Virus genome (UHGV): UHGV-0127759
Reading direction: 5' to 3' (one strand)
Length of the DNA: 36,118 bases
Source of the DNA: a virus
Under the pieces are notes generated by a model, which saw nothing but the letters and a program-made list of their open reading frames with translations, had not been told where the DNA came from and did not search any database. Within the stretch, counting starts at the first letter, position 1. Each line of letters starts with the position of its first letter. Positions 1 to 15,125 of the stretch are shown here, in pieces. A program made the translations under genes and the position numbers.

Positions 1-211
1 ATTAAATGGATTGACAAATCCAAATCTTATTTATCCTGGTCAAGTTTTGAAAGTAAATGGATCAGTAGTAAGCAACGTTTACACAGTTCAATATGGTGAT
101 AATTTATCAAGTATTGCAGCCAAACTCGGTACTACTTATCAAGCCTTAGCTGCATTAAACGGACTATCAAATCCTAACTTGATTTATCCTGGTCAAACAT
201 TGAACTATTGA
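1..211 (+). CDS. C-terminal LysM repeats of the cell-wall hydrolase; 5'-partial here and most likely the continuation of the endolysin that starts at 35028 (wrap-around)
   Basis: Translation ...[20 protein letters not shown]...[44 protein letters not shown] shows two LysM repeats. The reading frame is continuous with the final codons of the window (..DYQALA + gt|a). Confidence 0.7.
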
Positions 212-360
212 TAGTTTTAATATAAAATAAGGATACACTTATTTAAATTCTCTTGAGTCGCCTTCCCAAAGGCGGCTCTTTTTCTAAAAAGCACTTGTAA
301 TAAAATATTCGATTTGGTTTAATTATAGTATATAAGTTTACTGTTAAAGGAGAAATAAGT

Positions 361-1188
361 GTGGATTGGAATGAAGGTCCTTGTAGGATAGATACTTTAG
401 AAAATGTTGATTGTATTTTTTCTATTGATGAAAATGGAAACTCTACTTTAAAAAATGCTCATTTGTTTGATGATAATAATAAGTTATTTACTATAACAGG
501 AGTATATATAGAGACTGAATATCACAATTTAATAAGAGATCAATTAATGGAAATTAAAAATAAATATTGGGAAGATGGTCTATTTCAAGGCAAAAGAGTA
601 GTTTTTCATTCAAAAGAAATACGCAAGAAACAAGGTCCATTTAATCCTAAGTTAATTAATTATATTGATTTTAAAAATAAACTTAATGATTTTCTTTCAG
701 GTTTACCAGTAAAAATGTATTCAGCCACTATTGATAAATTTGAGCATAATAATAGATATATAAATCCTTATCCTGTGTATGAATTAGGGGTAGAATTTAT
801 TATAGAACGGTTTTGTTTTGATCTTAGAAGAAAAAACAAACAAGGAGTTGTTTTATTGGAATCTAGAGGTTTCAAAGAAGACTGCTTAGTATTAAGTAAA
901 TTAAAAAATTTATTAGAATCAGGTAATGATTATAATAGCGAGGATAATTTCTCTTGTATCTCTGGAGTTTATTTTAATCCAAAAAGAACGTCTGATGGGA
1001 GACAATCGTATTGGCCACTTGAAATTTCTGATATTCTTTCATATAGGATACATAGATTCATAAGGACAGGAATTGAAGATGAAGATTTTGTATGTATTAA
1101 GGACAAGATATTTGGATATCCAGATTTTGAAGGAAAAGGATTAAAAATATTTCCATATAAGGAATTACGGAGTGAAAAAAATGAATGA
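361..1188 (+). CDS. Hypothetical cytoplasmic protein, DUF3800-like (predicted RNase H-like fold); first gene of a two-gene moron
   Basis: GTG start lies 8 nt after AGGAGA. It has an N-terminal IFSIDENG motif and a VFHSKEI motif reminiscent of DUF3800 (recalled from memory, not searched). The gene is very AT-rich relative to the phage backbone and its 3' end overlaps the next gene by 17 nt. Confidence 0.45.
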   Translation: MDWNEGPCRIDTLENVDCIFSIDENGNSTLKNAHLFDDNNKLFTITGVYIETEYHNLIRDQLMEIKNKYWEDGLFQGKRVVFHSKEIRKKQGPFNPKLINYIDFKNKLNDFLSGLPVKMYSATIDKFEHNNRYINPYPVYELGVEFIIERFCFDLRRKNKQGVVLLESRGFKEDCLVLSKLKNLLESGNDYNSEDNFSCISGVYFNPKRTSDGRQSYWPLEISDILSYRIHRFIRTGIEDEDFVCIKDKIFGYPDFEGKGLKIFPYKELRSEKNE

Positions 1189-1624
1189 GTTAGATATTCA
1201 AAAAAAGAAACAAGCATTAGATAATTGGGGGGTATCAAAAGAAATCCTTGCCAGAGATTGGTTAGAAATGGAGACAGTTAAAAGAAACCGCCTATTTAGA
1301 CAAGGCGAAATTGTTATGTGTGAACTTGGTGAAAATATTGGATATGAAATTTGTAAGAGAAGACCCGTATTAATTATTTCAGACGATAGATACAGCAAAT
1401 ATGGGCATGTTGTAGTAATTCCTCTTACTAAAAATACTAGACCATTACACACCCATTATATATTAAAAAAAGAAAAATATGATTTTTTAACTTGGGATTC
1501 TTGTGTTAAAACAGAGCAAATTCGAAGTGTTGCTAGTATAAGACTAGAGAATATAATTGGTAAGATTGATTCTTTTGATATGAGAGGCATAAAGAATAGA
1601 CTAAAATCATTAATTAATATATAA
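1172..1624 (+). CDS. MazF/PemK-family (CcdB/MazF fold) endoribonuclease-toxin-like protein with a roughly 45-aa N-terminal extension
   Basis: ATG follows a GGAGTG RBS. GEIVMCELGENIGYEICKRRPVLIIS parallels MazF GDIVWVDFDPTKGSEQAGHRPAVVLS. VVVIPLTKN and the C-terminal helix (IRSVASIRLENIIGKI) fit the PemK/MazF fold. No small MazE-like antitoxin ORF lies upstream. Confidence 0.7.
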   Translation: MKKMNELDIQKKKQALDNWGVSKEILARDWLEMETVKRNRLFRQGEIVMCELGENIGYEICKRRPVLIISDDRYSKYGHVVVIPLTKNTRPLHTHYILKKEKYDFLTWDSCVKTEQIRSVASIRLENIIGKIDSFDMRGIKNRLKSLINI

Positions 1625-1758
1625 TATAGATAGAAGTCAATATTGACATATAAAATATAAATTGATAAAATCTAACTATGTTGTCCATCAAGTCATGGAC
1701 TTTTGACACTTAAGAGTGGTCTGGGGATATCCCAAACGGATAATTAAGTGGTTTTATT

Positions 1759-1785
1759 GCCCCTCCTGTCAGGGGCCTTTTTTAT
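1759..1785 (+). terminator. Rho-independent terminator (GCCCCT-loop-AGGGGC followed by a T-run)
   Basis: Perfect 6-bp stem followed by CTTTTTTATTT. Confidence 0.5.
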
Positions 1786-1855
1786 TTCTAGGATTTTTTA
1801 CTCTAGTCGAATGAGCTAACGTCCATAGATGTGAGTTTATATGGTTCATAATGAA

Positions 1856-1891
1856 TCCCTACTTCTCATTGTGAGAAGTAGGGATTTTTTT
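1856..1891 (+). terminator. Strong rho-independent terminator
   Basis: Perfect 13-bp stem TCCCTACTTCTCA/TGAGAAGTAGGGA with a 3-nt loop and a T7 run. Confidence 0.75.
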
Positions 1892-2086
1892 GTTTATTCG
1901 GTATAATTTATATATCTATTCGCTTGCCTTTTTTAATTTTTTGATGTAGATTTTATCTTGTTGTTATAGTCTATTTTGCTAATTTGAATTAAAATGATAT
2001 TACGTAAACCCTTGTGAGTTCTAGTCTGTCTAAATATGGTGTTGTAGAAAAATTACACCGTGAAACTAAATAATTTATTTGAATAT

Positions 2087-2129
2087 AGCCTAGAATCCTT
2101 GCTTTATAAGGGTTCTAGGCTCTTTTTTT
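2087..2129 (+). terminator. Rho-independent terminator
   Basis: 12-bp stem AGCCTAGAATCC/GGGTTCTAGGCT (one G-U pair), then CTTTTTTT. Confidence 0.65.
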
Positions 2130-2175
2130 GTTGTTAGGAATTTACTGATTTAGTTATTGATGTAGATTTGCTATT

Positions 2176-3357
2176 TTAAAAATTTACATAGCTACTGAAA
2201 GCATCTGTTGCTTCTTTAGTAACTTCATCAGAAACATGAGTGTAAGTATCCATAGTTATTTGTAAAGAAGAATGTCCTAAACGTTCTTGGATTATTTTAG
2301 ACCTAACATTATCTGATTCGAATAATAATGTTGCGTGGGTATGCCGAAAACCATGACAACCAATAGAATGTAAGTTAGCCTTTTCTGCCAATCTTTTGGA
2401 ACGTTGGTAAATGTCTTGACTTCGGAACATGGTACCATCAATTTTTGTAAAAATGAGTTGTGTTTTAAACCCACCTTTTTTCATTAAAGCCTCACGCTGT
2501 CTAAGTTTCCATTTTTTTAAGATATAAGCAGTCTTGTTATCAAAAGAAATTTTACGAATAGAATTGGAAGTTTTAGGATCGTTTATAGTCAATCCATTTG
2601 TACTGATAGCAGTAGTTTTATTTATATTAACTACCTGCTTTTTTAAATCAATATCATTCCAATTCAATGCTAAAGCTTCACCAACACGTATACCAGTAAA
2701 AGAAAGTAAGCGAAAAATAGCACAGTCTAAGTCAGCATAGTATTTTAGAACTAAACTTTCTTCTTTGGCTTGATTGGCAATGCTATCAGCTGTATTTAAG
2801 AAATGTTCCAGTTCGTCTTTTGTATAGAACTTTCTTTTTGTATTCTTTTCTATTTTCTTTAGTGAACTAGGCTTAGTTATTTTCTTAAATGGGTTTGAAT
2901 CTATTATTTCTAAACCAACAGCATAGTCACAAACACGAGAAGCATAACTCAAAAGTACTTTTCCCATTTCATTCTTTTTATACCATTCATTAACAGATTT
3001 TTGCACGATCTTGACTGTTAAACGCTCAAGTCGCATTTTCCCGAATGTGGGTAAAATGTGTTTTTTCATACGTCGTTCAGTAGCTATAAATGTGGATTCC
3101 CTAACTGTTTTTTTGTATTCGTCCAACCACATATAATAAACTTCTTCAAAAGTGGTTAAATGAGTATGCTCGTTAGCTAGATTTCCATTATCAAAATCTA
3201 ATTTTTTTTGATTAAGCTTGAGCTGTGCTTCTTTTTTTGTATTACAGTTTCTGATAGTGACATTAATTTGTTTTCCAGTTAAATAATCTACGCCTAAATA
3301 GGCAGTTACTTTCCAGTATTTTTTTCCTTTTTTTGTATATTGTTTAAAAGTTGCCAT
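2176..3357 (-). CDS. int: Tyrosine site-specific integrase
   Basis: The C-terminal catalytic region contains HGFRHTHATLL...GHSSLQITMDTYTHV (R..HxxR...Y). The N-terminal SAM-like domain is present. The RBS is GGAAAGGA. Confidence 0.95.
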   Translation of the reverse strand: MATFKQYTKKGKKYWKVTAYLGVDYLTGKQINVTIRNCNTKKEAQLKLNQKKLDFDNGNLANEHTHLTTFEEVYYMWLDEYKKTVRESTFIATERRMKKHILPTFGKMRLERLTVKIVQKSVNEWYKKNEMGKVLLSYASRVCDYAVGLEIIDSNPFKKITKPSSLKKIEKNTKRKFYTKDELEHFLNTADSIANQAKEESLVLKYYADLDCAIFRLLSFTGIRVGEALALNWNDIDLKKQVVNINKTTAISTNGLTINDPKTSNSIRKISFDNKTAYILKKWKLRQREALMKKGGFKTQLIFTKIDGTMFRSQDIYQRSKRLAEKANLHSIGCHGFRHTHATLLFESDNVRSKIIQERLGHSSLQITMDTYTHVSDEVTKEATDAFSSYVNF

Positions 3358-3431
3358 TGTTTATCCTTTCCACTTGGGCAAGCGAATAGAAGGAATGACA
3401 AATTTCTAGCACCTCCTTATTAAATTTTAAA

Positions 3432-3463
3432 GCCCCTGGCATGAATCGAACACGCTTAGACTC
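3432..3463 (-). other. tRNA 3'-end-like fragment (T-arm plus acceptor 3' strand) on the minus strand, a candidate attP core
   Basis: The minus strand reads GAGTCTAAGCGTGTTCGATTCATGCCAGGGGC. It has a GCGTG/CATGC T-stem with a TTCGATT T-loop (G53, C61), and no matching 5' half is nearby. It lies immediately beyond the int start. Confidence 0.3.
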
Positions 3464-3542
3464 GCCAGAGAGGGAGATTTATAGAAGAAATTATGTTATA
3501 ATTAGCCTATGAAGAGGTCATCCAATTGTAAAGGGGTTTTCT

Positions 3543-4190
3543 ATGATGGTTACTGAATACTTAAATATTTTTGCAGTACTTATACAATCTACTGCTACAG
3601 GATATTTTACCTATTTCTTAATTAAGAGTAATGACTTGTTAGTTTTATCAAATGCACAAAAAGAAGAAAAAATAGCAGTAGTATCAATATTGTCAGCTAT
3701 TAATTTAGCTGTATTTTTGTTAGCTCAAAGTATCATTTCTTACAATTTGTCGAATATGGAACCGTACATCCAACAAATTGCGGCTGCAATACTATCATTT
3801 GTATTAGTATTAGTAATTGGGTTGTTCGTTTTACCTAAAGCAATTTTATCTTTTTTTTCTTGGATAAATAAACTTAGAAAAAAGAAGGGTAAGCTAGAAT
3901 TTACACATAGAGCAATTAGAGATACTGCGTTGGATAATTCTTATCATCAATACATCTATGTTTTTGATTTTGCAAATAACTATATCGCTTCTGGCTATTT
4001 AAATGTTTATCAATATAATACGGATGAATACAATGAGTTACTATTATATGCACCAAAAGAACCTGAAAAAAGACGAACTGTCGAAGCAGTTGAAATTCTA
4101 TTTAAAAATAATGATATAAATATTTTGATTGATTATGAGAAAAAAGTGAAATTGTATATAGTGCCTATGGACGAGGCTGTGGGCGAGTAG
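3543..4190 (+). CDS. Membrane protein (about 4 predicted TM helices plus a cytoplasmic C-terminal domain); a moron between int and the repressor
   Basis: ATG follows AAAGGGG. Hydrophobic segments include FAVLIQSTATGYFTYFLI, IAVVSILSAINLAVFLLAQSII and AAAILSFVLVLVIGLFVL. The gene is AT-rich and has its own downstream hairpin with a T-run. Confidence 0.7.
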   Translation: MMVTEYLNIFAVLIQSTATGYFTYFLIKSNDLLVLSNAQKEEKIAVVSILSAINLAVFLLAQSIISYNLSNMEPYIQQIAAAILSFVLVLVIGLFVLPKAILSFFSWINKLRKKKGKLEFTHRAIRDTALDNSYHQYIYVFDFANNYIASGYLNVYQYNTDEYNELLLYAPKEPEKRRTVEAVEILFKNNDINILIDYEKKVKLYIVPMDEAVGE

Positions 4191-4283
4191 GTGGCGGAGG
4201 AGGTGCTCCTTTGCCACCATTTCTTTTTTCTCCATAATCGGGCATTGTTCTAGTAGTTGGCATTTTTAATATTCCTTTCTAAT

Positions 4284-15053: not shown

Positions 15054-15125
15054 TGGAGCATAGCTTAATCGGTAGAGCAGCGGTCTCGAAAACCGTTAGT
15101 ATAGGTTCGAGTCCTATTGTTCCAG
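15054..15125 (+). tRNA. tRNA gene, anticodon CGA (decodes UCG) but with a class-I 4-nt variable loop; identity uncertain
   Basis: Manual cloverleaf: acceptor TGGAGCA/TGTTCCA (one G-U pair), D-arm GCTT-AATCGGTA-GAGC, anticodon arm GCGGT-CTCGAAA-ACCGT, T-arm ATAGG-TTCGAGT-CCTAT, discriminator G. No CCA is encoded. Confidence 0.6.

Follow-up and report, generated by a model that had tools for sequence, protein, structure and literature searches.

The DNA analysed here, UHGV virus genome UHGV-0127759, is a stretch of 36,118 nucleotides (nt; hereafter the window) from a temperate Enterococcus faecalis phage; the deposited DNA sequences closest to it are those of E. faecalis phages. Close to its first letter lie a DUF3800-family gene and a PemK/MazF endoribonuclease gene, which a first-pass annotation, made from the sequence without database searches, had described as an AT-rich pair and a candidate defence or abortive-infection cassette. 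Both open reading frames (ORFs) are present as that annotation had placed them (361..1188 and 1172..1624). Comparison with related loci (identified below by L numbers), together with RNA folding, indicates that the cassette consists of three parts and not of two genes, the third being a predicted small RNA gene that begins just after MazF (Table 1).

Table 1. Features of the cassette and of its flanks in the window
Feature	Position	Strand	Details
Shine-Dalgarno AAAGGAG of the DUF3800 gene	347..353	+	7 nt ahead of the GTG at 361
DUF3800-family gene	361..1188	+	275 aa, GTG start; from homologs, alignment and AlphaFold2 fold
PemK/MazF endoribonuclease gene	1181..1624	+	147 aa from ATG 1181 (alternative GTG 1172, 150 aa); from PF02452, homolog lengths and Shine-Dalgarno sequence
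Promoter of the small RNA	1643..1671	+	-35 TTGACA (1643-1648), 17-nt spacer, extended -10 TGnTAAAAT (1663-1671); score 11/12
Composite small RNA, predicted	1678..1783	+	~106 nt; ends inferred, 5' from the -10 element and 3' from the U-tract
P1 (unit 1), MazF-associated hairpin	1683..1700	+	6-bp stem GUCCAU/AUGGAC, hexaloop CAAGUC
P2a, stem enclosing P2	1707..1750	+	CACUUAA (1707-1713) / UUAAGUG (1744-1750); from minimum free energy folds
P2, DUF3800-associated hairpin	1719..1737	+	7-bp stem GUCUGGG/CCCAAAC, pentaloop GAUAU, flanked G...G
Unit 2 / intrinsic terminator, second P1-type hairpin	1759..1783	+	6-bp stem GCCCCU/AGGGGC, hexaloop CCUGUC, then C + U6; hairpin proper 1759-1776
LysM lysin gene, 3' end	11-211		upstream neighbour of the cassette
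Rho-independent terminator of the upstream lysis module	255..278	+	10-bp stem, 6 GC pairs, T-run
Approximate prophage end / attachment (att) core	1885..1895		outside the cassette; homology with L082 ends at window 1891
Integrase	2176-3357	-	opposite strand to the cassette

The DUF3800 and MazF genes

The product of the upstream gene, 275 amino acids (aa) long, gave no direct match in Pfam even at E ≤ 1, PF12686 (DUF3800) included, and the family call therefore rests on homologs and structure. About 120 homologs were collected, most of which carry PF12686; the domain was found in homologs from 64% identity downward, and NCBI names an 86%-identical protein DUF3800. The AlphaFold2 (AF2) model had a predicted local distance difference test score of 93.6, and its best Foldseek matches were RNase HII (1eke, E = 5.7e-4), human RNase H2A (3puf) and Bst RNase HIII (2d0a), with modest template-modelling (TM) scores of 0.37-0.44. 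On these grounds we assign the protein to the DUF3800 family, with a predicted RNase H2-like fold, which bears out the first-pass reading of a DUF3800-like protein with an RNase H-like fold; published remarks on DUF3800 agree with such a fold (PMC7736814). In the subfamily alignment (A1), D23, E24, E149, E167 and D224 are invariant, and the C-terminal motif of the window's subfamily is ExxD (E221...D224), QxxD being found in distant members only. With its acidic motif intact, the DUF3800 protein is predicted to be an active nuclease.

The MazF-type fold proposed for the downstream product was recovered both by sequence and by structure. PF02452 (PemK_toxin) matched residues 43-147 of the 150-aa product at E = 1.6e-22 (80.2 bits against a cutoff of 23.1), and the AF2 core superposed on the S. 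aureus and B. subtilis MazF proteins with a TM-score of 0.84 and a root-mean-square deviation of ~2.1 Å. Translation probably starts at ATG 1181 and not at GTG 1172, because a Shine-Dalgarno GGAG lies at 1169-1172, 8 nt upstream of the ATG, and the homologs are all 147 aa long. The overlap with the DUF3800 gene is therefore 8 nt (ATGAATGA), not the 17 nt initially reported, and it is not conserved, the spacing between the two genes in relatives ranging from -8 to +26 nt. R61-P62 is invariant and position 83 is T or S within an (I/V)PL(T/S) motif (19 sequences); by analogy with R29 and T52 of E. coli MazF we take these to be the Arg-Pro and Thr/Ser of the active site, and refer to them as presumed catalytic positions.

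The fold match to solved MazF proteins covers residues 38-142 only. Ahead of the core lies an N-terminal extension that is conserved across the subfamily, with W16 and K20 invariant, and that is absent from all solved MazFs. The first-pass annotation had rightly singled it out as unusual but had put its length at ~45 aa, where we count ~37-42 aa. The extension gave no sequence match to any protein in the PDB, MazE included, and AF2 placed it with low confidence (50-70) and not docked in the active site. PHROG 1412, labelled 'antitoxin mazE-like', matches MazF residues 10-86, and the segment DNWG...DW presumably recalls the acidic, Trp-containing tail of MazE. Likeness to the MazE C-terminal tail was dropped as an explanation of the extension, with no support from the PDB sequence search and low AF2 confidence, and is kept below as a minor rival only. 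In one viral contig (L184, 1368-1895, minus strand) a MazF homolog beside DUF3800 and the RNA is split over two frames, and may be a frameshifted pseudogene or a sequencing error.

Recurrence of the gene pair elsewhere, on which the first-pass reading depended, was seen in ~20 loci from Enterococcus, Planomicrobium, Viridibacillus, Bacillus, Latilactobacillus and metagenomes. MazF follows DUF3800 in 8 of the first 97 loci, and only where the DUF3800 gene is among those nearest to the query. Some 34 close relatives of DUF3800 are stand-alone genes, with neither MazF nor a conserved protein neighbour, and the N-extended MazF occurs without DUF3800 and without any upstream partner in L111-L114 and L118 (the MazF-only loci); thus neither protein needs the other.

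The proposed lack of a canonical MazE/PemI, or of any other small protein antitoxin, was confirmed for the region: no ORF of at least 30 aa in or around 212-2175 matched any antitoxin family at E ≤ 1, and no protein antitoxin was found upstream of the MazF-only loci at the same threshold. PADLOC-DB 2.0 returned zero families at E ≤ 1 for either protein, and NCBIfam and PHROGs gave nothing beyond 'MazF-like'. In the papers searched we found no description of a DUF3800-MazF system or of a PemK/MazF toxin with an RNA antitoxin, in keeping with the first-pass remark that the pairing was not known as a named system. The Latilactobacillus phage TMW 1.1365 P2 (L171; OQ240256.1, 1824-3270), which was induced from a cultured strain, carries DUF3800, MazF and the composite RNA, followed by an integrase; both of its proteins are annotated "hypothetical protein". 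This phage is a ready experimental system.

A small RNA gene and its modules

Published work links DUF3800 genes to structured RNAs (PMC5737381), and we therefore examined the DNA after MazF. The promoter found just past the MazF stop is the best-scoring site in window 1-4200, and a terminator hairpin follows it after ~90 nt. At the equivalent place, a sigma-70-type promoter scoring at least 9/12 was present in 39 of 43 loci, against 12% of random windows, whereas no operon promoter comparable to the RNA promoter was found between 279 and 346. The minimum free energy (MFE) fold of 1676-1786 contains P1, P2a, P2 and the terminator hairpin, and this architecture was found in 11 of 14 independently folded orthologues. 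The promoter, the three hairpins and the U-tract are conserved in relatives with proteins only ~55% identical.

The stems themselves vary by compensatory change, as in GUCCAU/AUGGAC, GUUCAC/GUGAAC and GCUUAU/AUAAGC among relatives. P1 shows changes on both sides at 6 of 6 pairs in the core alignment (A4), and 5 of 6 pairs are compensatory in alignment A9; 93% of cells were paired in the core alignment against 28-43% in slid controls, a percentage inflated to some degree by the use of stem search in gathering part of the set. The P2a pairing is likewise kept while its sequence varies (CAUUAGU/ACUAAUG, GUGAUA/UAUCAC and, in L171, UGUGAAAA/UUUUCACA). P2a was judged from independent MFE folds; in MAFFT alignments of the whole RNA the arms of P2a are misplaced, as is a further hairpin, P3. 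The latter (e.g. CAUGCUCGAUGGCAUG) is an extra element of L001, L002, L007, L086 and L102, placed between P2 and the terminator and inside P2a, where it creates a three-way junction.

In searches with cmsearch, the covariance model R1 scored 81 bits at window 1676-1741 and, in the initial set of nine loci with MazF, 55-82 bits immediately 3' of that gene. In a later locus set its scores were 33-82 bits, except in the divergent composite loci L105, L119 and L120 (19-22 bits), and it gave no score in ~50 canonical MazF loci without the extension (L121-L170). The three divergent loci have a different, shorter 5' hairpin, GGGA-CNAGA-UCCC. Scans of the window, the subfamily loci and the distant-clade loci (~60 loci) against Rfam 15 detected no family at the RNA site at gathering score or E ≤ 10, DUF3800-I/-IX, pemK and abiF included; the known DUF3800 motifs expected near distant DUF3800 genes, which were meant as a positive control, did not appear either. 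Weak matches to sbrA and RefA9 were rejected as terminator look-alikes. The RNA is therefore outside Rfam 15, and P2 may equal a motif of Weinberg et al. (2017) that was not deposited in that database.

Each part of the RNA was also seen with one nuclease only. At every one of the ~34 stand-alone DUF3800 loci a convergent mini-gene abuts the DUF3800 stop codon. It opens with a near-consensus promoter, followed in some cases by a variable 5' hairpin, and continues with GG, the P2 stem-loop, a G and a terminator. In alignment A5 (39 sequences) P2 is 98.5% paired against 19-46% in slid controls, with the same inflation from stem search; 4 of 6 pairs are compensatory, and at one pair all four Watson-Crick types occur. 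The strand that is transcribed is fixed by the many G-U pairs, which are compatible with the inferred strand only. What is conserved is the stem shape, the flanks and the loop, in a short closed hairpin without a variable guide-like segment. In a distant DUF3800 clade (25-33% identity; Bacteroidota, Ignavibacteria, the candidate phyla radiation and Deltaproteobacteria) a convergent P2 takes the form GGAUyGGGG-UGU-CCCCrrUCGG plus terminator, ~10-80 nt past the DUF3800 stop on the opposite strand (L036, L037, L046, L051-L054, L056, L066, L068, L073-L075, L089, L092, L093 and L096). As far as sequence comparison can tell, the P2 RNA seems to be a family-wide partner of DUF3800.

Other RNAs were noted near two DUF3800 genes. 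A sub-threshold abiF RNA match (RF03085, 32 bits against a gathering score of 37) lies at L052 3922-3957 (plus strand), just upstream of a DUF3800 gene that has a P2 RNA downstream, and a Gut-1 RNA (RF01706, 82.6 bits) lies at L018 2450-2527 (plus strand), ~250 nt downstream of a stand-alone DUF3800 gene and past its P2 RNA.

P2 was also found away from DUF3800. Among 12 exact matches to the distant-type P2 in viral contigs, seven have no DUF3800 gene within the 6-14 kb examined; these orphan sites are 22 nt long (L175 461-482, L177 5970-5991, L178 8947-8968, L179 1650-1671, L181 4092-4113, L182 9760-9781 and L183 8188-8209). One of them is just upstream of a 16-tRNA array, two are directly before tRNA-like genes, three are nested in another hairpin and one has its own terminator. 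Pseudo-ToxI is a precedent for phage RNA mimicry of a defence RNA. Because orphan copies of a defence-system RNA in phages resemble such anti-defence by mimicry, the orphan P2 hairpins are candidate phage RNA decoys inhibiting DUF3800 systems, a reading for which the evidence is suggestive only.

In the MazF-only loci, an RNA with a TTGACA promoter follows MazF (L111 3575-3790, L112 1050-1250, L113 2550-2755, L114 3575-3790 and L118 2698-2880). It contains a P1 near-identical to the window's (GUCCAU-CUCGUC-AUGGAC), a CACG...CGUG hairpin and a terminator, and has no P2. The P1 unit occurs twice in tandem in these loci, the second copy in L111 with a fully compensated stem; in the window's group the place of the second P1-type unit is taken by the terminator hairpin, whose 6-bp stem carries a CNNGUY hexaloop. 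The two P1-type hairpins are separated by ~76 nt in the window and by ~145 nt in the MazF-only loci. A scan of 2.1 Mb for the P1-type motif gave 50 occurrences, 39 of them directly 3' of an N-extended MazF, compared with 1-11 for shuffles.

P2a corresponds to the CACG...CGUG hairpin of the MazF-only RNAs, and the 3' tail, including UUCUUAGG, is common to both RNA types; the window RNA can therefore be described as a MazF-type RNA with a DUF3800-type hairpin inserted in an apical loop. When IMG/VR was searched starting from the RNA, all eight exact matches to the composite-type P2 lay just 3' of MazF, with DUF3800 in view in six and the other two at contig edges. We are highly confident that the RNA gene exists and that its modules associate with each nuclease. 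The MazF-only loci are, in turn, a candidate new type III-like toxin-antitoxin family, in which a PemK-family toxin would be paired with an RNA located downstream.

Possible roles of the RNA

The interpretation that we prefer, and to which we give an even chance, is that a single composite RNA binds the two nucleases and keeps both in check, which would make the cassette a type III-like toxin-antitoxin or abortive-infection module. The RNA would be made in excess from a strong promoter, since its promoter is near consensus and no comparable operon promoter was found in 279-346. It would bind both nucleases directly, P2 contacting DUF3800 and the two P1-type hairpins contacting MazF, presumably as a dimer and probably via the N-terminal extension, and the RNA-bound nucleases would be kept inactive as with a type III toxin-antitoxin RNA. 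If the RNA supply collapsed, through phage-induced transcription shut-off, RNA decay or loss of the prophage, the freed MazF would cut RNA and the freed DUF3800 would cut its own substrate, possibly RNA in a duplex or hybrid, and the resulting growth arrest would abort a superinfecting phage or stabilise the prophage.

Three considerations lead to this proposal. In the MazF-only loci an intact endoribonuclease has to be held in check, and the RNA is its sole conserved neighbour, which makes the RNA the likely neutraliser. ToxN and AbiQ are MazF homologs with extra residues for binding of their antitoxin RNA (PMC7781912), a role that the N-terminal extension would match. Lastly, a prophage AbiF toxin (Clostridioides difficile AbiF-RCd22) is neutralised through direct binding by a non-coding RNA (ncRNA) with two hairpin motifs (PMC12373285). 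The orphan P2 hairpins of phage contigs would accord with the proposal as well.

Several points weigh against it. The RNA lies downstream of the toxin or convergent to it and has its own promoter, unlike the classical type III layout; its units are hairpins and not 34-36-nt pseudoknot repeats, and no toxin cleavage site is evident in it. P2 is absent at the equivalent position in the distant DUF3800 loci L047, L048, L057 and L063-L065. The pairing percentages for P1 and P2 are raised by the partial use of stem search, which the background and slid controls mitigate but do not remove. Finally, the RNA could just as well serve an RNase H-like enzyme as cofactor or guide, and a protein-protein relationship would also account for the close linkage of DUF3800 and MazF in an operon.

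If the RNA were a positive cofactor, that is, a guide, scaffold or activator, DUF3800 and P2 would form a ribonucleoprotein nuclease or sensor that controls MazF as a downstream effector, in the manner of retron ncRNA-effector complexes or RNA-guided nucleases. Type VII retrons, which are ncRNA-based, have DUF3800 as their effector (PMC7736814); the family also accompanies Cas12a2/a3 loci and has been found beside 11 unrelated structured RNAs in either orientation (PMC5737381); the family-wide association with P2 and the retention of the acidic catalytic residues fit such a role as well. We still regard it as unlikely, given that P2 has no variable segment that could act as a guide, that orphan copies in phages are easier to understand as inhibitors of a host nuclease than as its activators, and that the MazF-only loci need a neutraliser for which the RNA is the only conserved candidate. 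The first-pass annotation had instead seen in DUF3800 a large, non-canonical antitoxin or sensor of MazF, which would make a type II-like pair and the RNA incidental or only regulatory. The two genes are indeed co-directional and tightly linked, with the 8-nt overlap in the window, and they co-occur in ~20 loci of several genera with no MazE. This model agrees poorly with the wider comparison, in which each protein occurs without the other and, when alone, has its own RNA (the ~34 close DUF3800 homologs without MazF or a conserved protein neighbour, and the N-extended MazF of L111-L114 and L118); the overlap is variable, and DUF3800 keeps nuclease residues that an antitoxin does not need. We now consider it quite improbable.

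Restraint of MazF could also come from within the protein, the N-terminal extension acting as a fused antitoxin that inhibits the toxin in cis while the RNA tunes expression or serves DUF3800. That the extension is conserved, with its invariant W16 and K20, and absent from all solved MazFs, and that the PHROG 1412 match reaches into it, would suit this idea; the missing sequence match to any solved protein, MazE included, and the low-confidence, undocked AF2 placement do not, and P1-type hairpins after precisely the N-extended MazF genes would be left unexplained. Auto-inhibition is thus, in our estimate, very unlikely. It is hardly credible, finally, that the downstream element is an operon 3' untranslated region with a terminator or a stabilising stem-loop and not a separate gene. 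The element does share the strand of MazF, follows that gene directly and finishes with the one terminator close to the operon, but near-consensus promoters are conserved ahead of it, transcription is convergent in the stand-alone DUF3800 loci, the non-terminator hairpins covary and have conserved loops, and identical P2 hairpins occur in unrelated phage contexts.

The preferred reading, restraint of both nucleases by one RNA, can be joined with the other observations into a broader one, which we find possible but doubtful in its full extent. The RNA would be a composite hub, two CNNGUY MazF-binding hairpins fused to a DUF3800-binding hairpin, and would serve as the shared antitoxin or gate of a dual-effector abortive-infection system; the whole DUF3800 family would consist of RNA-gated RNase H-like toxins, the N-extended PemK/MazF proteins would add a fourth family, not seen before, to the type III toxins, and phages would counter with orphan P2 decoys, some of them co-transcribed with tRNA arrays.

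Should the RNA prove to be an antidote, the structured RNAs beside DUF3800 genes from the 2017 screen would gain a testable function, and type III-like RNA control would reach bona fide PemK/MazF toxins as well as an RNase H-like family also present in type VII retrons and Cas12a2/a3 loci. Antitoxin RNAs could then be modular, a single transcript controlling two effectors, and the orphan phage P2 hairpins would point to anti-defence RNA decoys of a new class. In prophages of Enterococcus, Staphylococcus, Bacillus, lactic acid bacteria and gut Clostridia, many MazF and DUF3800 genes that now pass for orphans would need re-annotation as complete systems, with a bearing on phage therapy against E. 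faecalis and on the phage resistance of starter cultures.

Known systems and genomic setting

Like type III systems (ToxIN, AbiQ-antiQ, CptIN and TenpIN), the cassette combines a MazF/Kid-fold endoribonuclease with an adjacent ncRNA gene of repeated units in place of a protein antitoxin, and is carried on mobile elements; like ToxN and AbiQ with their additional RNA-binding residues, its MazF has an extra segment, here N-terminal. It departs from them in that its toxin is a sequence-detectable PemK/MazF (PF02452) and not ToxN, CptN or TenpN. Its RNA is downstream with its own promoter, whereas type III RNAs are tandem pseudoknot repeats of ~34-36 nt located upstream, with a terminator between RNA and toxin; the units of the cassette RNA are two simple hairpins with CNNGUY loops. 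Processing of the RNA by the toxin is not evident, and a second, unrelated nuclease (DUF3800) shares the RNA. With type II MazEF/PemIK the cassette has in common the toxin fold and the presumed catalytic residues, and differs in lacking a MazE/PemI gene, in the N-terminal extension and in the RNA gene after the toxin.

AbiF-RCd22 is similar in being a prophage toxin next to an ncRNA in which a conserved hairpin occurs twice, and the abiF motif was first found in the 2017 screen. Its protein is Abi_2/HEPN-like, its RNA motif is another one, RCd22 is located upstream in cis to abiF, and there is a single effector. In that screen, Weinberg et al. described structured RNAs beside DUF3800 genes as being of unknown function and offered no hypothesis (PMC5737381). 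These motifs (DUF3800-I to -XI, drum and skipping-rope) resemble the P2 RNA in occurring by DUF3800 in either orientation and in often ending in intrinsic terminators; the P2 RNA differs, in a comparison made with Rfam 15 families only, as a minimal hairpin plus terminator that is fused into a MazF-type RNA in the window. Type VII retrons (reverse transcriptase, ncRNA and DUF3800) share the RNase H2-like DUF3800, a structured ncRNA and the anti-phage context (PMC7736814). No reverse transcriptase stands beside the cassette or its stand-alone relatives, no retron or reverse-transcriptase RNA families were detected in the Rfam scans, and the retron DUF3800 clade lacks the C-terminal Q of QxxD, where the window subfamily has ExxD. 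Restraint of a nuclease toxin by RNA and the association of DUF3800 genes with structured RNAs are thus already known. New are the families to which the toxins belong, the architecture of the RNA, the order of the genes and the fact that two nucleases share one composite RNA.

The cassette occupies the moron slot between the lysin gene and attP/integrase that the first-pass annotation had assigned to it. The terminator ahead of it insulates it from the lysin gene, and homology with cassette-carrying relatives starts at ~248-279. On the other side, homology with L083 and L084 ends at 1785; comparison with L082, an integrated relative that is 97% identical, places the prophage end, or att site, near 1891. 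The pair is as AT-rich as had been claimed, with 27.9% GC in the DUF3800 and MazF genes against a window mean of 35%, within the lowest 0.5% of 1264-nt windows. In relatives, cassettes lie in mobile-element contexts beside lysins, integrases or recombinases.

The pair had also been said to be followed by three terminators. Terminator-like hairpins do exist at 1759-1776, 1853-1887 and 2087-2121, but the conserved cassette includes only the first of them, as part of the small RNA gene that the first-pass annotation had missed. The hairpins at 1853-1887 (16 bp) and 2087-2121 (15 bp), both on the plus strand, are strong and flank the inferred att site. The segment 1786-1891, including the terminator 1853-1887, was considered as a second RNA unit and dropped, being conserved in near-identical phages only.

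A transfer-messenger RNA lies at 6393-6759 of L082, ~860 nt past the prophage end. Further along the window, at 3543-4190 (plus strand), a 215-aa ORF with predicted membrane-spanning N-terminal segments is divergent from the integrase, a typical position for an accessory gene of the lysogeny module. At 15054-15125 (plus strand) the phage carries a tRNA-Ser with anticodon CGA, which scored 68 bits in Rfam.

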